Counted from the first letter of the whole stretch, positions 7,774 to 57,947 are shown. The stretch is DNA of 63,334 bases, filler included, from 8 parts of 8 records of this genome joined end to end with filler, not necessarily neighbours in it, one strand, 5' to 3'. The notes: generated by a model not told the origin, from the sequence alone. Numbers and translations: made by a program.

Positions 7774-8386
7774 TGGGAACGGCGCATTTAATTGTTATTG
7801 AGTGCAACATCCTGCTTGATCTGTTGCGCGCATTTACTGGCGGCTGTAGAAACAGAGACAAACAAAAAGAAAAAGCAAGCCACTAAACCGCAGGTGCGGG
7901 GGCGAAGCATTCTGGTAAGGAATAGATTGGAATATTTGAGTGTAAGAACAGGCAGTTTGGGATACACTCAACCTTACATAATACGGCACTGAATCTTTTG
8001 AGAAATCATCTGTGGTAGGTAAGTAATAAGGGCTCAAGTCTTACATAGAGTCTGGAAGACAATAATGATTGTAAATAGTGGTACTCTATACAAATAGCAC
8101 AGATACACTCCAATAACCACTGTGCACGAACAAAAATTGTAAACTTTAAACATACTTATTGAATGTGTTAAGCAGTCAAAACCATCCAAACACACCGTTT
8201 TTAACCTGTTTCCGGCGTGTTAACCTTGATGTCATGAATAAAGATTCGTACTAAACACCCCGTTGTGTATATTGAGGCACGTGTAATAGAGCCACAATGC
8301 ACAGAAAAGAAACCAGGCTAAGGCACAAAACAAATCAGCCGTCCGCACGGCCAACGATTTTGCAATTATACTCCCGGGGGAATGTT

Positions 8387-51739: not shown

Positions 51740-51845
51740 NNNNNNNNNNNNNNNNNNNNNNNNNNNNNNNNNNNNNNNNNNNNTTAATTAATTAANNNNN
51801 NNNNNNNNNNNNNNNNNNNNNNNNNNNNNNNNNNNNNNNGCATGA

Positions 51846-52536
51846 GCAGGTTTCCAGTGGGTCGATACAGTCGACCAACAGGGACCACACACCGGACGTG
51901 CCTTCCGTGGTATAACGCCAACGCAAGTTCGCGTTGTGGTTCTCGGGCAGGACCCATACCCTCAGCAGGGTCAAGCGACGGGCCGGGCCTTTGAGGACGC
52001 GGCCTGGGACGGAAGGCCCGAACATCTTGCCGACAGCCTGCAGGCCATTTTCCAGTCGGCGCTTCTGACCGTACGGGATGACCTCGATATCGAGCGGCAG
52101 CAGGCGGATTGTCCAGGCATGATGCGCGCCATCGCAGACGGTCAGATCGCGCTGCCGCCGAGGCTCGATACCTGCTTCGATGGATTAGCTGCGCAGGGTG
52201 TCCTGTTTATCAATGCGGCCTGGACCTTCTCCGGGAGGCCGCACAAGAAAGCTCATCTTGCCTTCTGGAAGCCCGTCACGGAGTTTCTTATTCGAAAGCT
52301 TGCAGCAGACGACGCCATCCGGGTTGTTTTTCTTCTTCTGGGTGAAGACATTCAGAAGATGTGCTGGAAGGCAGATCTCATCTGCAGGAACGCGGCATTT
52401 GTTTCGAATGCTCATCCCTCCCCCCGTCCGTCCGGTCCTACTTCGCGAATGAGCCCCCCTAACTCGGGTCAATGAGGCTCTGGACGACCTTGGCAGGGAT
52501 CGGATCACCTGGAGGCCTCCAGGGCTGGCGGCATGA
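51846..52536 (+). pseudogene. ung: Frameshifted uracil-DNA glycosylase (UNG family)
   Basis: RAF..VRVVVLGQDPYP, GVLFINAAWT, HPSP in one frame; C-terminal LTRVNEALDDLGRDRITW in another frame; in-frame TGA at 51843. Confidence 0.7.
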
Positions 52537-52605
52537 TCCTCGCCTTCCCTGTCCTTGGCGGGATGCCCGCCGGATCATGCCTCATATCGACCTCATAACT
52601 CAGGG

Positions 52606-52631
52606 CTTAACACTATTGGTAATAATGTTAA
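52606..52631 (+). repeat. Putative tyrosine-recombinase core site, left copy
   Basis: C-TTAACACTA-TTGGTAA-TAATGTTAA; 23/26 identical to 57279-57304. Confidence 0.7.
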
Positions 52632-52735
52632 ACGATGGAATTTTTCTTCCCATCTCCTGCGGTAAGATGCCTGCTTTTTAAGCAATTATTAAAAAAACAG
52701 ATCTACACTCAAGTGCTATCAGGAGGATATGCACC

Positions 52736-52924
52736 ATGCAGGGAAAGGCTTGGATGGTTGAGGTCGTTGATGATTTGTACCGATTTTCTGCGGCTAACAA
52801 CCTAAAATCGACAGCAATGCAACTCTTGGCGGTCAAGGGGGTCTTGCTTTTGGAACTCGAAGAGGAGAGTGGCGCGGATCGCCCTCGTCCGGATTTGAGA
52901 TGCGTAGGAGGATCCGTTTTTTGA
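52736..52924 (+). CDS. Small hypothetical protein of Rhodobacteraceae type
   Basis: AGGAGG RBS; W.VEVVDDLYRFSAANNL pattern recalled from small roseobacter proteins. Confidence 0.55.
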   Translation: MQGKAWMVEVVDDLYRFSAANNLKSTAMQLLAVKGVLLLELEEESGADRPRPDLRCVGGSVF

Positions 52925-53061
52925 ACGGGATGGGGCCAGATCACCGGTCTTCCGCATAGCTTTACTGTTTTGGCCAGTCGGAAGTTGTGAATACTCAAGT
53001 CACTGGCCTTCTTGCTGCTCAATGACACGGTTTATCCGCCGATCCCCAAAAAGGCTGATCG

Positions 53062-53439
53062 GTGAAACAGGATCACGCTCTAACGCAATGGTTTCGGAAC
53101 GCTGTTGCCGGGGCCGATGACAAGAAGTTAATCATGAATGTGATCCTTGAAGACAGTGGTGGTGTGCTCATCCAGCGAAAGCTGTTGCTTGTGTTGGTGC
53201 ACAAGGCTCGACAAATGCAGGCTGCGGAGTGGGCCTCATTGCGGCTTCGCTGGCTTGCGGTATCCTGTCAGATTAGGCGTGCCGCTATCGAGAAGGCTAT
53301 AGCGCGGTACGATATTCCTGATTTGTGCTATACTGACCTACTAACCCGCTCTGACGAGAATGAAACGGTCAGGATCAGCAAGGCGTGCTTTGAAAGCTTG
53401 TCCGATCAATGGTTCCGGCATCACGCCTTGATGCGATGA
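53062..53439 (+). CDS. Hypothetical protein
   Basis: 125-aa ORF only. Confidence 0.4.
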   Translation: MKQDHALTQWFRNAVAGADDKKLIMNVILEDSGGVLIQRKLLLVLVHKARQMQAAEWASLRLRWLAVSCQIRRAAIEKAIARYDIPDLCYTDLLTRSDENETVRISKACFESLSDQWFRHHALMR

Positions 53440-53488
53440 TCGGATCGATATGAAGATCTCGATGAAATAATCGAGGCGGCCGGGCCGA

Positions 53489-54376
53489 TCATCGCATCGC
53501 CGCGATAGCCTCTGCGGATGAGATCAAAAGTTGTATGTCTTCGGGGTTCGGGGCGTCGGCGGTCGCCATGGTCGCGACGACCTCACCATCAATGCGCAGT
53601 TCCGTCTGATCCGGATCGCTTTCCGAGGGACCCAATGTGACTTCGGCATCCGCCTGATCCGGAGAAACAAGGACCACCACAACATCGTCGTCGGGATTGA
53701 AATCGGCCAGATCCGCGCCGCCACCATCCGCGTTGCCCGGCCCGAAGAGGACAAACGTGTCCTTTCCTTCCCCCCCATAGGCATGATCGCCCTGGCCTGC
53801 GATCAAGACATCGTCTCCATTGGCACCAATCAGGTAATCCTCGGCTTCGTCACCGCCAACAAGCGTGTCGTCACCGTCTCCGCCGAACAGGCTGTCCTGT
53901 CCAAGGCCGCCGTTCATCAGGTCGTTTCCGGCGCGCCCATGTAGCGCATCGTCATCTGCACCGCCATAGAGCGTGTCGTCGCCCTCATCGCTGACAGCGA
54001 TGTCGTCCCCGGCGCCGCCAAGAAGCACATCCGCGCCTGCACCGCCAAGAAGCTCATCCTTGCCGGCATCACCAACAAGGAACTCGTCATCGGTACCCCC
54101 TTCAAGGGTGTCGTCGCCGTCGGTTCCGGACAGGACGATGTCGTCAGCCTCGGGCTCCGGGGCGTCTTGCAAAGCCTCTGCAGCGTAATCCAGCAGGCTT
54201 CCCTCATCGGTCGAGACCTCTCCATCTTCAGCGGTTGACGCCTCCTCTCCAGTGTCATCAGCCGCGTCCGGCGACATCGTTGCGTCGTCGTCTTCCGCGA
54301 TCTGCTCAGTGGGCATTGCAAGCGCCAAGGCGACTCCGCCCATGCAAAGCAGTCCGATCATCATGAACATAGTCAT
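53489..54376 (-). CDS. Membrane-anchored RTX/hemolysin-type calcium-binding protein
   Basis: N-terminal hydrophobic helix; multiple GGxGxDxL repeats; very acidic. Confidence 0.85.
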   Translation of the reverse strand: MTMFMMIGLLCMGGVALALAMPTEQIAEDDDATMSPDAADDTGEEASTAEDGEVSTDEGSLLDYAAEALQDAPEPEADDIVLSGTDGDDTLEGGTDDEFLVGDAGKDELLGGAGADVLLGGAGDDIAVSDEGDDTLYGGADDDALHGRAGNDLMNGGLGQDSLFGGDGDDTLVGGDEAEDYLIGANGDDVLIAGQGDHAYGGEGKDTFVLFGPGNADGGGADLADFNPDDDVVVVLVSPDQADAEVTLGPSESDPDQTELRIDGEVVATMATADAPNPEDIQLLISSAEAIAAMR

Positions 54377-54415
54377 ACCCTTCTGATTTGAGCAGAAACC
54401 GTGAAACTGCCTGGT

Positions 54416-57091
54416 CTATACAATATCGAACCAGTCGAGACCGATCAGGGGACCCGTGGCAAGATCCGCTGCCGCATCCCCCACATCGACCACCAACAGT
54501 GCACTTCCGTCCGGACTCATCAACCTGAGCAGATCGCCATCCACCTGCATCGAGAGCACGCTTGTGGAGACACCGGAAGCCAGGTGAAGAACGATCGTGT
54601 CGCCCTCGCCGGTATTGAAGTCGGTGATTTCCTGAGGTGAGGCACCCGGGCTGAGAAAATGGAACTCGTCTGCGCCGCTTCCCCCTGTCAGGATGTCATG
54701 GCCCCCGCCGCCTTCCAAGACGTCGTTGCCATCTCCTCCGAACAGGCTGTCGTCTTCGGTCGTTCCCCACAGGGTGTCGTTGCCATCCTGACCATGAAGC
54801 TCGAGCCCCGAACCCCCATTGGAAAACCGGGTAGATGTCATATCGAGGATGTCGTCGCCAGCGCCGGCAAGAATACGTTCTATATCGTTGATACGAGAGA
54901 CTGGCGCAGTGCCGACTGCAGAATTGAAGGTGCTGAGGACGTCGTCGAGAAAATAGGCGTCGTTGCCGCTCCCCAGGCGGACGCTGTCGAAAGCATCGCC
55001 GCCGTAAGTGACCGCGCTGTATCGGCTGAAGCCATCGATGGAAACGCTCCAGGCCGCAAGTCCGTCCTGCCCGCTGTGAACATGGAGGGCGCGATAATCG
55101 CTTGAAAAGGTGGCCGTGGACGACAAATCAAGCCAGTCATTGTCGGCTCCACCATAAAGTGCGTCCGTACCGCCCGAGGATTGAAGCGTATCGGCCCCCG
55201 CCCCGCCGTAAAGAACATCATCGCCGGGGCCATCGATCAACTCGTCGTCGCCATCGCCGCCGCGCATGGTGTCGTTGCCCCAGCCCCCCTTGAGCTTGTC
55301 GTCATCCTCGCCGCCATTCAGGTAGTCGTTGCCACCGCGGCCCAGCAGGACGTCTCTTCCCGTACCCCCGATCAGCGCATCCGTGGCATCTGTTCCGTCC
55401 TGCCTGACGGGATTGTCGATCACGATGCGCACGACGTCGAAGGGCATCAGATCGAAGGACAGCGTTGCGTCGCCGTCTGCAGCCTTGATGGATTGGATAA
55501 GCGGATCGACGTCGATCTCGCTGGTGAAGTAGTAATCTTCGATCCCTGTCGGCCGCGAGACCAGCGGGATGATCGTATCGAAGGGCGGCAGATAGGTCAG
55601 GATCTGATCGCCGGAGTAGCGGACATGATTGGGATTGTCCGGGTCAAAGAATGCCAGCGTCTCGAGTTGCGCCAGCTCGTCTGCGGTGATGGGACGGCGC
55701 CCGACACGACCACTCCCGTCCGAACCGGCAAAGTCGCTCAGGCCATCGGAACTGGTCGGATCGATTGTCAGTCGGTCAATCGTCAGAACAGAGTCGCTGT
55801 CGACGAGACTTCCGAGGTCGAGATCGACGCCCGACGGACTGTTCGACCTCAAGGATACGAAAAGCACGTCCTGATAGCCGCTGGTAAAGTGATTGACTTC
55901 GACACTGCCGTCGCCACCGGACCAATCCGAAAGGACACTCTGGAATTCATCCACCCGACCGGTCTCGCTGTCCCTCGGTCGCAGGCTCTCTGACAACATC
56001 GAGAACGCCGCGCCGCTCATGGTGTATTCAAGATCCTCGGCGTTGCGATTGCCCATGATGTTGTTGGGCGTGCGGTGCTGAAGCGGCCAGATATGCGCAT
56101 CATCGACACCCATCCGCACCATGAACTCGAACATCTCCATCAGGACCGAGGCACTGGCAGCGCCATGCTGCGTATCGTTCCCCGCCACCACGTTCCATTC
56201 GGTGACGAACAGTTCGACATCCCGGCCGAGGTGTTCCTGGAAGTTCTGGAAGCGCAGGTCGATCATGCGGACCTCGCGCCAGTCTGCGGCATCCGTGAAG
56301 CGCAGCCCGTCATCGCGGGTCACGTTGTAATAGTAATGCACCACCGCCCCATCCACCGCGGCCAGGGCACGCGGATTCAACAAGGAGAGAATGGCCTCGT
56401 TCGCGGCATCGAAGTTCCCGGCGTCGTCACCTCCCTTGTAGGTGCTGGCTGCGCCGTTGGTTTCGGCCATCTGCAGCAGGATCCGCGGGTCCGGCGCGGC
56501 AGATCCCATCGATGTCGCCAAGCGATCAAGGGCGTTCTGCGTCGCGTTGATCACGCGGTTCGCGGCAATGCTGTATTCCACTTCGTTCATCGCGGCGATG
56601 AAGCTGCTGTCCTCGATATATTCGGGGTGAACCGAACGATCGGCGTCATCGACCCTTGTCCCAATCGAGTATTCGTTCCCGATTTCGAAGGCCACGATCA
56701 GGTCGCCATACTGAGACAAAAGCTCATGGACGAGTGCCTCTATCCGGTGCGCAGGAATATCCGACTTTGTCGGAAGGACAAAGGTTACCTGATATTTCTG
56801 ATCTGCGGTTGAGTTCTCCACGCACCAATCAAGGAAGGCGGTTATCTCCGGGCGCAGGCGCCCACCCGGCATGTTCGTCACATCGAGCGTGTTCTCGACA
56901 TGACCTCCGGGATATCGCAAGCTGTTGATTTGATGCGTCTGGATTGCTTCCTGAAATCCCTCTGAGGGACTGTAATCGACGCCATCGTCGGACAGGTTGA
57001 TGTTGTGCAGAGCGTTCGCTCCGAACTGGTCGTCGCTAACGTATTGCCCGGTCTCTGACGAAGATACGTACTGTAAACTGCGTCTTGGCAT
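54416..57091 (-). CDS. Type I secretion target: clan GH-A-like glycoside hydrolase domain plus RTX repeats
   Basis: LRYPGG, FEIGNEY, HYY, FVTEWN motifs; C-terminal GGxGxD repeats and ITDFN tail; no signal peptide. Confidence 0.8.
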   Translation of the reverse strand: MPRRSLQYVSSSETGQYVSDDQFGANALHNINLSDDGVDYSPSEGFQEAIQTHQINSLRYPGGHVENTLDVTNMPGGRLRPEITAFLDWCVENSTADQKYQVTFVLPTKSDIPAHRIEALVHELLSQYGDLIVAFEIGNEYSIGTRVDDADRSVHPEYIEDSSFIAAMNEVEYSIAANRVINATQNALDRLATSMGSAAPDPRILLQMAETNGAASTYKGGDDAGNFDAANEAILSLLNPRALAAVDGAVVHYYYNVTRDDGLRFTDAADWREVRMIDLRFQNFQEHLGRDVELFVTEWNVVAGNDTQHGAASASVLMEMFEFMVRMGVDDAHIWPLQHRTPNNIMGNRNAEDLEYTMSGAAFSMLSESLRPRDSETGRVDEFQSVLSDWSGGDGSVEVNHFTSGYQDVLFVSLRSNSPSGVDLDLGSLVDSDSVLTIDRLTIDPTSSDGLSDFAGSDGSGRVGRRPITADELAQLETLAFFDPDNPNHVRYSGDQILTYLPPFDTIIPLVSRPTGIEDYYFTSEIDVDPLIQSIKAADGDATLSFDLMPFDVVRIVIDNPVRQDGTDATDALIGGTGRDVLLGRGGNDYLNGGEDDDKLKGGWGNDTMRGGDGDDELIDGPGDDVLYGGAGADTLQSSGGTDALYGGADNDWLDLSSTATFSSDYRALHVHSGQDGLAAWSVSIDGFSRYSAVTYGGDAFDSVRLGSGNDAYFLDDVLSTFNSAVGTAPVSRINDIERILAGAGDDILDMTSTRFSNGGSGLELHGQDGNDTLWGTTEDDSLFGGDGNDVLEGGGGHDILTGGSGADEFHFLSPGASPQEITDFNTGEGDTIVLHLASGVSTSVLSMQVDGDLLRLMSPDGSALLVVDVGDAAADLATGPLIGLDWFDIV

Positions 57092-57278
57092 ACCAAACCC
57101 CAGATTGCTCGGGTTTGGTTTTGCAGGTCCAGCTGTCTATGAGGCCGCCCAAAGTGCGGCCGCACTTTGGCTTTCAGCAACAAAGTGAGTCATATTAAGT
57201 CAAAGATACTCTAAGATCCTTAACCATTTTCGGCCCTTGATAATGAATTCTCAAGAGAGCCCCAAGGCCAAGCTGGCA

Positions 57279-57304
57279 CTTAACACTATTGGCAATTCTG
57301 TTAA
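57279..57304 (+). repeat. Putative tyrosine-recombinase core site, right copy
   Basis: C-TTAACACTA-TTGGCAA-TTCTGTTAA, about 100 bp upstream of the recombinase. Confidence 0.7.
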
Positions 57305-57402
57305 GCATGGCAGGCCATTGGGCCGGGCGGCCAGGCCCAGTCCGAGGGCAATCGGGCTTTTGTGTTTAACAGTTTTCGGGCAATCTGTTTGATATGCCGC
57401 AA

Positions 57403-57918
57403 ATGCGCCTCCATGACCCGGCCGGAAACCGGCTCTACCTCAACGCTGAGGAACGCGCGGCCTTCATCGCCGCGGCCCGGCGTCAGCCGGCCCGGGACCG
57501 AACGCTCTGCGAGACCCTGCATTGGACTGGCTGCCGGCCCTCGGAGCTCCTCGAGATCACCCCGGCGCGCATCGATCTTTCCGTTGGCAGCATCACGATC
57601 CGCAGCCTGAAGAAACGCAAGGACACACAGGGTCGGCAAAAGGTCGTGTACCGGTCCGTGCCGGTCCCGACCGAGTTTCTGGATACACTGAACACCGCAC
57701 ACGGCATCCGGGAAGCGCAGAGGTCTCGCAAGCAGGCCGCAACGCTGATCTGGCCGCTCAGCCGCGTGCGGGTGTGGCAGATAGTGAAGAAGATCATGAT
57801 CGAGGCCGGCATCCCCGACGCACCGCATCGCTCGCCCAAGGGCTTGCGTCATGGGTTTGGGGTGCATGCCACCGTGCAAGGCGTGCCATTGCACATGTTG
57901 CAGCGCTGGCTCGGTCAT
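57403..57918 (+). CDS. Tyrosine recombinase/integrase, C-terminus missing or disrupted
   Basis: TGCRPSE, SLKK, KGLRHGFG, WLGH; no catalytic Tyr follows within the contig. Confidence 0.88.
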
Positions 57919-57947
57919 GTACCGACCCAGCGGAATCTGCTCAGGTT
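57918..57947. mobile_element. Possible IS terminal inverted repeat (IS3-like 5'-TG end)
   Basis: TGTACCGACCCAGCGGAATCTG begins where integrase similarity stops; contig ends 30 bp later. Confidence 0.4.

Follow-up and report, generated by a model that had tools for sequence, protein, structure and literature searches.

A conserved palindromic site beside a family of short plasmid tyrosine recombinases, and an orphan copy flanking a probable relic with RTX genes

Plasmids and transposons use a number of tyrosine recombinase systems for resolution, including Cre/loxP of P1, ResD/rfsF of F and TnpI/IRS of Tn4430, in which the recombinase gene adjoins a core site with inverted arms and the replicon carries one such site. 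On Acinetobacter plasmids, gene modules are bordered by Xer core sites, which are considered to mediate cointegration, resolution and module exchange (PMC5790767, PMC7399989). Here we analyze a 63,334-base stretch of DNA (the window), in which two directly repeated 26-bp sequences enclose a 4.7-kb block with two RTX genes next to the gene of a tyrosine recombinase. The initial annotation of the window proposed that this block is a cargo cassette mobilized by that recombinase. The observation is confirmed and the cassette interpretation is partly supported: the repeat nearest the gene belongs to a site that is very likely the recombinase's own, as judged from its conservation in related loci, and the block itself is probably a frozen relic rather than an active mobile cassette.

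The window consists of eight draft contigs chained by N44-TTAATTAATTAA-N44 linkers and is not one molecule; the finding sits on one of these contigs, of 6,108 bases (window 51840-57947). Two 26-mers on its + strand, at 52606-52631 and 57279-57304, are identical at 23/26 positions and lie 4.67 kb apart. Each is a pair of 9-bp inverted arms around a 7-bp spacer (Table 1), and the two spacers match at 6/7 positions in direct orientation and at 4/7 in inverted orientation. Two small open reading frames (ORFs) and two RTX genes lie between the repeats, as ORF and Pfam analysis bears out, and the further palindrome that had been noted at 57366-57391 is also kept in homologues. The placement of the right repeat before a tyrosine recombinase holds in that an ORF starts at 57394, 89 bp past the repeat, but this ORF is not intact. 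The short length of the 26-mers is all that speaks for a chance likeness, to which we assign a negligible probability: a degenerate pattern fitting both was found at two places only in the 63,334 bases and had no match in any of 100 shuffles, and both copies fit a motif that occupies a fixed position in dozens of homologous loci. Chance is refuted on both counts.

When the 330 bases 5′ of the recombinase gene were aligned between the window and nine plasmids, two conserved islands, termed site A and site B, emerged from otherwise unalignable DNA in 10/10 homologues. Site A is the near-palindrome TTAACACTATT-N3-AATAGTGTTAA, which begins 113-114 bp before the ATG, and site B has the consensus TTAACAG-N12-CTGTTAA and stops 2-3 bp short of the ATG; the intervening ~60 bp are not conserved among the 10 sequences. 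The right repeat of the window is site A. With up to four mismatches allowed, site A was found in 71/87 non-duplicate related loci. All of the nine complete plasmids (24-300 kb) carry one site A each at three mismatches or fewer, always beside the gene and about 113 bp upstream of it, which is the single site per replicon expected of a multimer-resolution system; the window contig, with its two sites, is the exception. Five whole genomes that bear the recombinase have one or two sites A each, all on the recombinase contig, and at up to two mismatches the motif gave a single match in 3/401 genomes of the family around the nearest genome, which may not be the true host family of the contig. Because the copy number per plasmid and per genome is this low, the motif is not a genome-wide transcription-factor site, and a CtrA-like or other global regulator site is ruled out.

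The layout is retained in remoter homologues of 44-49% identity. In Komagataeibacter, a matching core, ACACTAT-N5-ATAGTGT, lies about 115 bp upstream of an operon of the recombinase and a WGR-domain gene, with a palindrome at the ATG, and in the 8-kb Shewanella plasmid pSXM33 a 12-5-12 palindrome lies about 115 bp upstream of the recombinase gene. Three loci (L061, L068 and L073) keep site B and have a common element, ...GTGCCA...GTGCCGGT(C/T)ACA..., about 135 bp before the ATG in place of site A, which may be an alternative type of site.

We next considered where related modules cease to resemble one another. Modules were paired at 85% DNA identity or more, giving 29 non-identical pairs, of which two are redundant, L086 and L087 being the same. 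In 22/29 pairs homology begins no more than 5 bp from site A's left edge, in seven it begins further right and in none further left, and the right-hand limit is the stop codon of the recombinase or falls after a small WGR-domain gene. Synteny breakpoints among related modules thus coincide with the repeat motif, at its left edge, as the cassette proposal had anticipated. In the 72 canonical sites there is little variation in the arms, and the three central bases are hypervariable, with 36 different 7-mers, as expected of a crossover region. In addition, the closely related modules L065, L069 and L074 differ in the left arm only, which is what exchange with foreign partners would give. Given the conserved position, the one copy per plasmid and the loss of homology at the left edge, the right copy appears to be the recombinase's own recombination site. 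We conclude that site A and site B together very probably form the site of this recombinase, that site A is likely to be where crossover occurs and not merely an operator, and that it most likely serves plasmid multimer resolution.

A mechanism consistent with these results is the following. Sites A and B would be the DNA site of a group of uncharacterized, catalytic-domain-only recombinases of ~201 amino acids on alphaproteobacterial plasmids, often with a WGR partner. Dimers of the recombinase would bind to the inverted arms of site A, 9-11 bp long, with strand exchange over its variable central bases, and the presence of one site per replicon suggests that their normal role would be to resolve plasmid multimers. 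Catalysis would take place at site A, and binding at site B, which abuts the ATG, would serve autoregulation, probably throttling the enzyme's own expression, or would aid assembly of the synapse. Since the arms are common to different plasmids, the enzyme might sometimes join foreign DNA at site A, replacing everything to the left of the site, and such joining may at times leave behind an additional, orphan copy of site A farther upstream. The left 26-mer would be an orphan of this kind. The 4.7 kb would have been joined at site A in two or more steps, first the low-GC part that carries the small ORFs and then the RTX pair, and although a working recombinase could structurally excise the segment, it would be frozen here, with the IS3-family insertion sequence (IS) ends around a 6.05-kb piece offering independent, transposon-type movement.

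The recombinase ORF matches PF00589 with 63.2 bits against a cut-off of 27.1, and its residues 16-176 align with profile positions 3-157 of 172, which leaves no room for an N-terminal core-binding domain. It is 88% identical to a Thioclava plasmid protein over residues 1-176. Close homologues (72-88% protein identity) are present on the nine complete Rhodobacterales plasmids, and remoter ones (44-50%) mainly on plasmids of Acetobacteraceae and Shewanella; 44 PLSDB records match the recombinase, and GTDB species genomes contain 313 relatives, 80 of which were examined as loci. No sequence model of any named recombinase family reaches its curated cut-off. Aligned to XerD, at the residues we take to be catalytic in that protein, the homologues show R (TGCRPSE), K-G-L-R for H-x-x-R, H (LGH) and Y (IYAD). 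The family thus has K-G-L-R where XerD has H-V-L-R, and the lysine, K149 in the window (57838-57840), replaces the first histidine of HxxR; a lysine occupies this position in type IB topoisomerases. The window copy does not have the complete set R...(H/K)xxR...H/W...Y, since it ends at ...WLGH and the tyrosine is missing.

A small WGR-domain gene (about 70-100 amino acids, PF05406) is paired with the recombinase at L008:6610-6822, L004:6611-6826 and L105:1001-1297, among others; it lies downstream of the recombinase in many Rhodobacterales loci and upstream in Komagataeibacter, and its product may be a DNA-binding partner. Neighboring genes are parA-like, copG and repA in Komagataeibacter and rep in the 8-kb Shewanella plasmid, and are variable in the Rhodobacterales plasmids. 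In the searchable literature, which does not cover subscription journals, we found no description of the recombinase-WGR pairing or of the recombinase family, the accessible portions of PMC13386836 and PMC9044938 included. The recombinase and its sites are best read as a module for plasmid multimer resolution or site-specific recombination, of a kind undescribed in that literature.

We then asked how often site A occurs more than once per locus. At four mismatches or fewer, 53 of the 80 loci have one site, 16 none, 10 two and one three. With two duplicate loci removed and the nine plasmids included, 71 loci have a site, and in these we counted 11 extra sites upstream of the canonical site (474 kb scanned) and none downstream (510 kb), compared with one and none, respectively, for a reversed-pattern control. 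These orphan sites were found in 10/71 loci, 0.4-9 kb upstream, and enclose one to several genes that are mutually unrelated and mostly lack a Pfam family. They mostly retain the gene-distal arm and lose the near arm (6 versus 1), and in 6-7 of the 10 loci the first gene past the orphan site runs in the same direction, with its start 28-213 bp downstream. Apart from the duplicates L086/L087 and ordinary upstream synteny between L024 and L042, no cargo is common to the two-site loci. Secondary sites next to the recombinase with differing cargo, which the cassette proposal called for, therefore do recur. A pattern so one-sided and varied is what would be left if foreign DNA were joined at site A time and again, and the orphan sites with their unrelated genes support the cassette idea at the level of the family.

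The left copy in the window is a full site A and is closer to the consensus than the right copy. Together with its flank it is identical at 30/31 positions to the canonical site of another plasmid, L065, so that the 23/26 identity of the two window copies reflects family-wide conservation of the arms and not a recent duplication. Neither site B nor a recombinase gene accompanies it. With tblastn, none of the orphan sites proved to have remains of a recombinase or WGR gene downstream of it (best E 0.94), and a second, decayed recombinase gene behind the left site was rejected accordingly. GC content drops from 0.58 to 0.45 exactly at the left site, and a further step occurs at 53480.

Several other orphan sites have features of their own. 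The one in L031 is a split palindrome, with the left arm TTAACACT followed by AGTGTTAA ~45 bp on (L031:6880-6945; L106:5580-5645), and on a Sulfitobacter dubius plasmid an orphan site of the L031 type adjoins an IS6 transposase. In Sulfitobacter litoralis (genome G403), contig C40 carries an extra sequence like site A at 52657-52681, with two mismatches, ~11.4 kb upstream of the canonical site; its + strand ends in AATAATGTTAA, as does the left copy in the window, and in the orientation of the recombinase the variant arm is the gene-distal (left) one.

The contig itself is bounded by insertion sequences. The window recombinase follows its homologues to ...WLGH (residue 175-176) and then diverges, and the last 30 bases of the contig agree at 29/30 positions with sequence found where IS3-family transposase genes end on Rhodobacterales plasmids; in L103 the matching bases form the extreme terminus of a 1.2-kb IS3-family element. 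The contig begins with 30 bases from the opposite end of this IS type (28/30 to L103), which are an inverted-repeat relative of the contig's 3′ end, so that the description of the block as lacking a transposase is true only within the contig. The left IS3 end cuts a uracil-DNA-glycosylase (UDG) family gene on its 5′ side. Together the two ends bracket a 6.05-kb piece in an orientation that fits two direct copies, with 30 bases of each IS on the contig. Because the IS3 element cuts the recombinase before the tyrosine, because the spacers differ by one base, and because IS3 ends bracket the piece, the block appears frozen here. Among Cre/lox spacer variants, one mismatch can strongly lower exchange. 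It is very unlikely that the segment can still be excised in its source genome, where only an intact recombinase copy acting in trans could do so.

Metagenomic relatives of the block bear on its history. Nine sequencing runs share 6-13% of the contig's words, and we inspected the assembled contigs (Logan) of four runs, which cover the RTX genes only, ignoring spurious joints caused by RTX repeats. In runs X1 and X3, from two studies, contigs of ~3.9 kb match 53480-57240 at ~94.5% (207-211 differences in 3,761 bases), and an IS3 end, the same 30-mer as the 5′ end of our contig, lies directly at 53480. The right loose end of these contigs (30 letters) resembles the window to ~57275 with small indels. 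Relatives of the RTX pair come from a bioreactor sludge metagenome and from a source labeled 'organism A', with fragments in seawater and estuary metagenomes.

A number of results weigh against the view that recombination at site A built and could move this block. At the locus itself, the catalytic tyrosine, as placed by alignment to the IY(T/A) motif of XerD, lies past the IS break. The left 0.85 kb of the block, with both small ORFs, is absent from the X1 and X3 relatives, as are the left site and the UDG fragment. Since these relatives have the IS3 end at 53480 and seem to continue toward the right site, the RTX pair appears to have a link of some standing with the right-hand side and not to have traveled with the left site. 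Contigs of the four runs contained no 52631/57304 join and no circle junction, although contigs of this kind cannot show absence; similarly, neither an empty-site allele nor the same cargo in a different background was found in these contigs, in 89 related loci or in PLSDB, all of them small samples. An empty-site allele around the two-site loci L031 and L040 was also not found in PLSDB, where a near search with the whole contig matched only the recombinase and a distant search with 51870-53479 gave no match. At the level of the family, 16/80 loci have no recognizable site A, some of them being cut off, and six of these retain site B with a different upstream element. The L031 orphan site and its left flank occur on the Sulfitobacter dubius plasmid, which has no recombinase homologue, and there the homology to L031 stops ~55 bp past the site and not within it. 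Lastly, sites produced by one event should share a spacer, and no site pair compared by eye, that of the window included, has identical spacers. The claim of a recombinase-mobilized cassette therefore stands in part, in that core sites are tied to the enzyme and orphan sites occur across the family, but at this locus it is opposed by the broken gene, the IS3 bounds, the mosaic structure and the lack of an empty site.

Three other explanations were weighed against this evidence. The palindromes could be operators alone, bound by a regulator (the recombinase as repressor, the WGR protein or a host factor) without any recombination, with the left copy controlling the 62-amino-acid ORF 105 bp downstream and the other sites controlling the recombinase operon. 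Such a role would suit the abutment of site B on the start codon, the co-oriented genes shortly past many orphan sites and the persistence of an orphan site on a plasmid that lacks the recombinase. It is nevertheless quite unlikely, as there are just one or two copies per replicon, the homology of related modules stops at site A in most pairs, the center is hypervariable between fixed arms, and the genes past the orphan sites share no homology. A relic of plasmid fusion strikes us as unlikely to a slightly lesser degree. Here two plasmids, each with site A, site B and a recombinase, would have recombined, one recombinase copy and most of one plasmid would have been lost afterwards, and later deletions and insertions would have left a lone site A, with no cassette movement. 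The near-perfect left copy, which with its flank resembles the canonical site of another plasmid, the mosaic interval with its GC step at 53480 and the IS activity at both contig ends could all be accommodated; against this, no orphan site is followed by a recombinase or WGR remnant, the left copy has no site B beside it, and simple whole-site decay does not predict that orphan sites elsewhere keep the gene-distal arm.

An explanation with a stronger claim, though we still consider it the less probable course, is that the moving unit is an IS3-flanked composite element or the product of an IS-mediated rearrangement (51870-57917), in which the 26-bp repeats are passengers. The contig terminates on its two sides in the right and left ends of one IS3-family type, oriented as two direct copies would be; a gene is cut at either side, and the RTX pair of X1 and X3 meets the same IS end elsewhere, at 53480. 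However, the contig carries just 30 bases of each IS, too few to show copy number, orientation or target duplications, and the explanation does not account for the family-wide conservation of sites A and B. It can coexist with recombination at site A. On balance, we lean toward the reading in which sites A and B form the recombinase site, the left copy is an orphan, and the 4.7 kb was joined at site A and is now frozen; on the narrower proposal that the left copy arose through recombinase-mediated joining we are close to evenly divided, inclining slightly against it.

Compared with Cre/loxP, ResD/rfsF and TnpI/IRS, the family described here is alike in that the gene adjoins an inverted-arm core site present once per replicon and that distant homologues lie beside rep and par genes, and the second motif between core and gene could be accessory or autoregulatory in the manner of the TnpI accessory repeats. 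It differs from these resolution systems in its size of ~201 amino acids without a core-binding domain, in the lysine in place of the first histidine of HxxR, in the frequent WGR-domain gene and in the orphan upstream sites of 10/71 loci. The resemblance to the Acinetobacter modules lies in plasmid gene modules edged by short tyrosine-recombinase core sites (PMC5790767, PMC7399989); those modules depend on host XerC/XerD and two different arms, whereas the present family has like arms and a recombinase in cis. It also falls outside Xer/dif, having the same arms on both sides and scoring 55-67 bits with XerC/XerD models whose cut-offs are 330-335.

As in integrons, a tyrosine recombinase gene stands beside a primary site and unrelated genes accumulate on one side only. 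The protein is not an IntI, however (TIGR02249, 32.6 bits versus 265; PRK15417, 25.3 versus 435), its secondary sites are double-stranded palindromes of the primary type, and there are at most two orphan sites per locus. We saw no attC-type imperfect hairpins, although no attC model was run, and only palindromes of the site A type were repeated. A gene-capture platform can be imagined in which circular DNA with an asymmetric site (one strong and one weak arm) inserts at site A on the gene-distal side, giving short arrays of unrelated genes bounded by orphan sites, of which the window would be one capture later frozen by IS3. This would be integron-like, but with double-stranded palindromic sites and a minimal recombinase without a core-binding domain, and we consider it improbable. 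The FimB/FimE invertases are similar in size and also consist of the catalytic domain only, and PRK09871 aligns over positions 3-172 of 198, yet it scores 37.8 bits against a cut-off of 222, and the window has direct sites kilobases apart and no invertible promoter segment, in place of the inverted sites and short invertible segment of such a switch. Finally, the locus resembles IS3-family composite or bracketed segments in that both contig ends are IS3-family termini that cut genes, and such bracketing explains the contig boundaries but not the 26-bp repeats.

Table 1. Features of the 6,108-base contig, in window coordinates
Feature	Position	Strand	Remarks
IS3-family insertion sequence, right terminal 30 bases	51840..51869		IS body leftward, off contig; 28/30 to L103 right end (2784-2813)
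UDG-family (uracil-DNA-glycosylase) gene, 5′-truncated	51870..52475	+	PF03167, E 1.9e-9
Orphan site A (left repeat), arms TTAACACTA / TAATGTTAA, spacer TTGGTAA	52607..52631	+	1 mismatch to family consensus
62-amino-acid ORF	52736..52924	+	Shine-Dalgarno-like AGGAGG upstream
125-amino-acid ORF of rare, unnamed family	53062..53439	+	2 relatives in 5.8 billion clustered proteins
295-amino-acid RTX calcium-binding repeat protein	53489..54376	-	PF00353, E 2e-29
891-amino-acid protein with C-terminal RTX repeats	54416..57091	-	PF00353, E 9e-34
Canonical site A (right repeat), spacer TTGGCAA	57280..57304	+	114 bp ahead of recombinase ATG; aligned in 9 homologous plasmids
Site B, palindrome TTAACAG-N12-CTGTTtg	57366..57391	+	ends 2 bp before start codon; 2 mismatches to its consensus
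Tyrosine recombinase gene, first ~175 of ~201 codons	57394..57917	+	PF00589, cut by IS
IS3-family insertion sequence, left terminal 30 bases	57918..57947		IS body rightward, off contig; 29/30 match

The features of the contig are collected in Table 1. The UDG-family gene has 43% identity to a UDG-family gene of an Alloyangia plasmid, with an in-frame stop at 51843-51845 and no in-frame start ahead of the GTG at 51936. Neither the 62- nor the 125-amino-acid ORF has a match in Pfam or NCBIfam, and the only two relatives of the latter are 77% and 72% identical to it. The initial annotation had described a glycoside hydrolase among the RTX genes, and this is only a lead: language-model look-alikes of the N-terminal 560 amino acids of the 891-amino-acid protein (window 55412-57091, - strand) include GH39/GH79-like clusters (0.94-0.96), but the same region has no Pfam match and no PDB sequence match. 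A secreted glycosidase that ends in an RTX tail is one possibility for this protein. A metagenome scan with the 560 residues returned one relative, of 64%, on a 3.1-kb contig without site A.

Elsewhere in the window, on another contig (GC 0.46), two palindromes of the TTAAC...GTTAA type lie 54 bp apart at 8147-8223, upstream of an ORF of 325 amino acids; the ORF has no Pfam match and no recombinase domain lies nearby, and we treated these palindromes as unrelated. The nearest genome, G001, has 27% of sampled words in common with the window and no match to the 6,108-base contig. The GC contents of the eight joined contigs spread from 0.46 to 0.59, so more than one replicon or organism may be present in the bin.

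Marine Rhodobacterales have highly mosaic plasmids, and little is known of how modules pass between them. At this locus, the setting of the RTX genes is not an active cassette but a mosaic that has decayed and is bracketed by ISs. For the family as a whole, the analysis defines a widespread recombination module, unnamed in searchable sources, with a precise DNA site at which plasmid synteny breaks. If the recombinase also inserts DNA at site A, it would offer a new and simple way of capturing genes and perhaps a compact tool for recombination.

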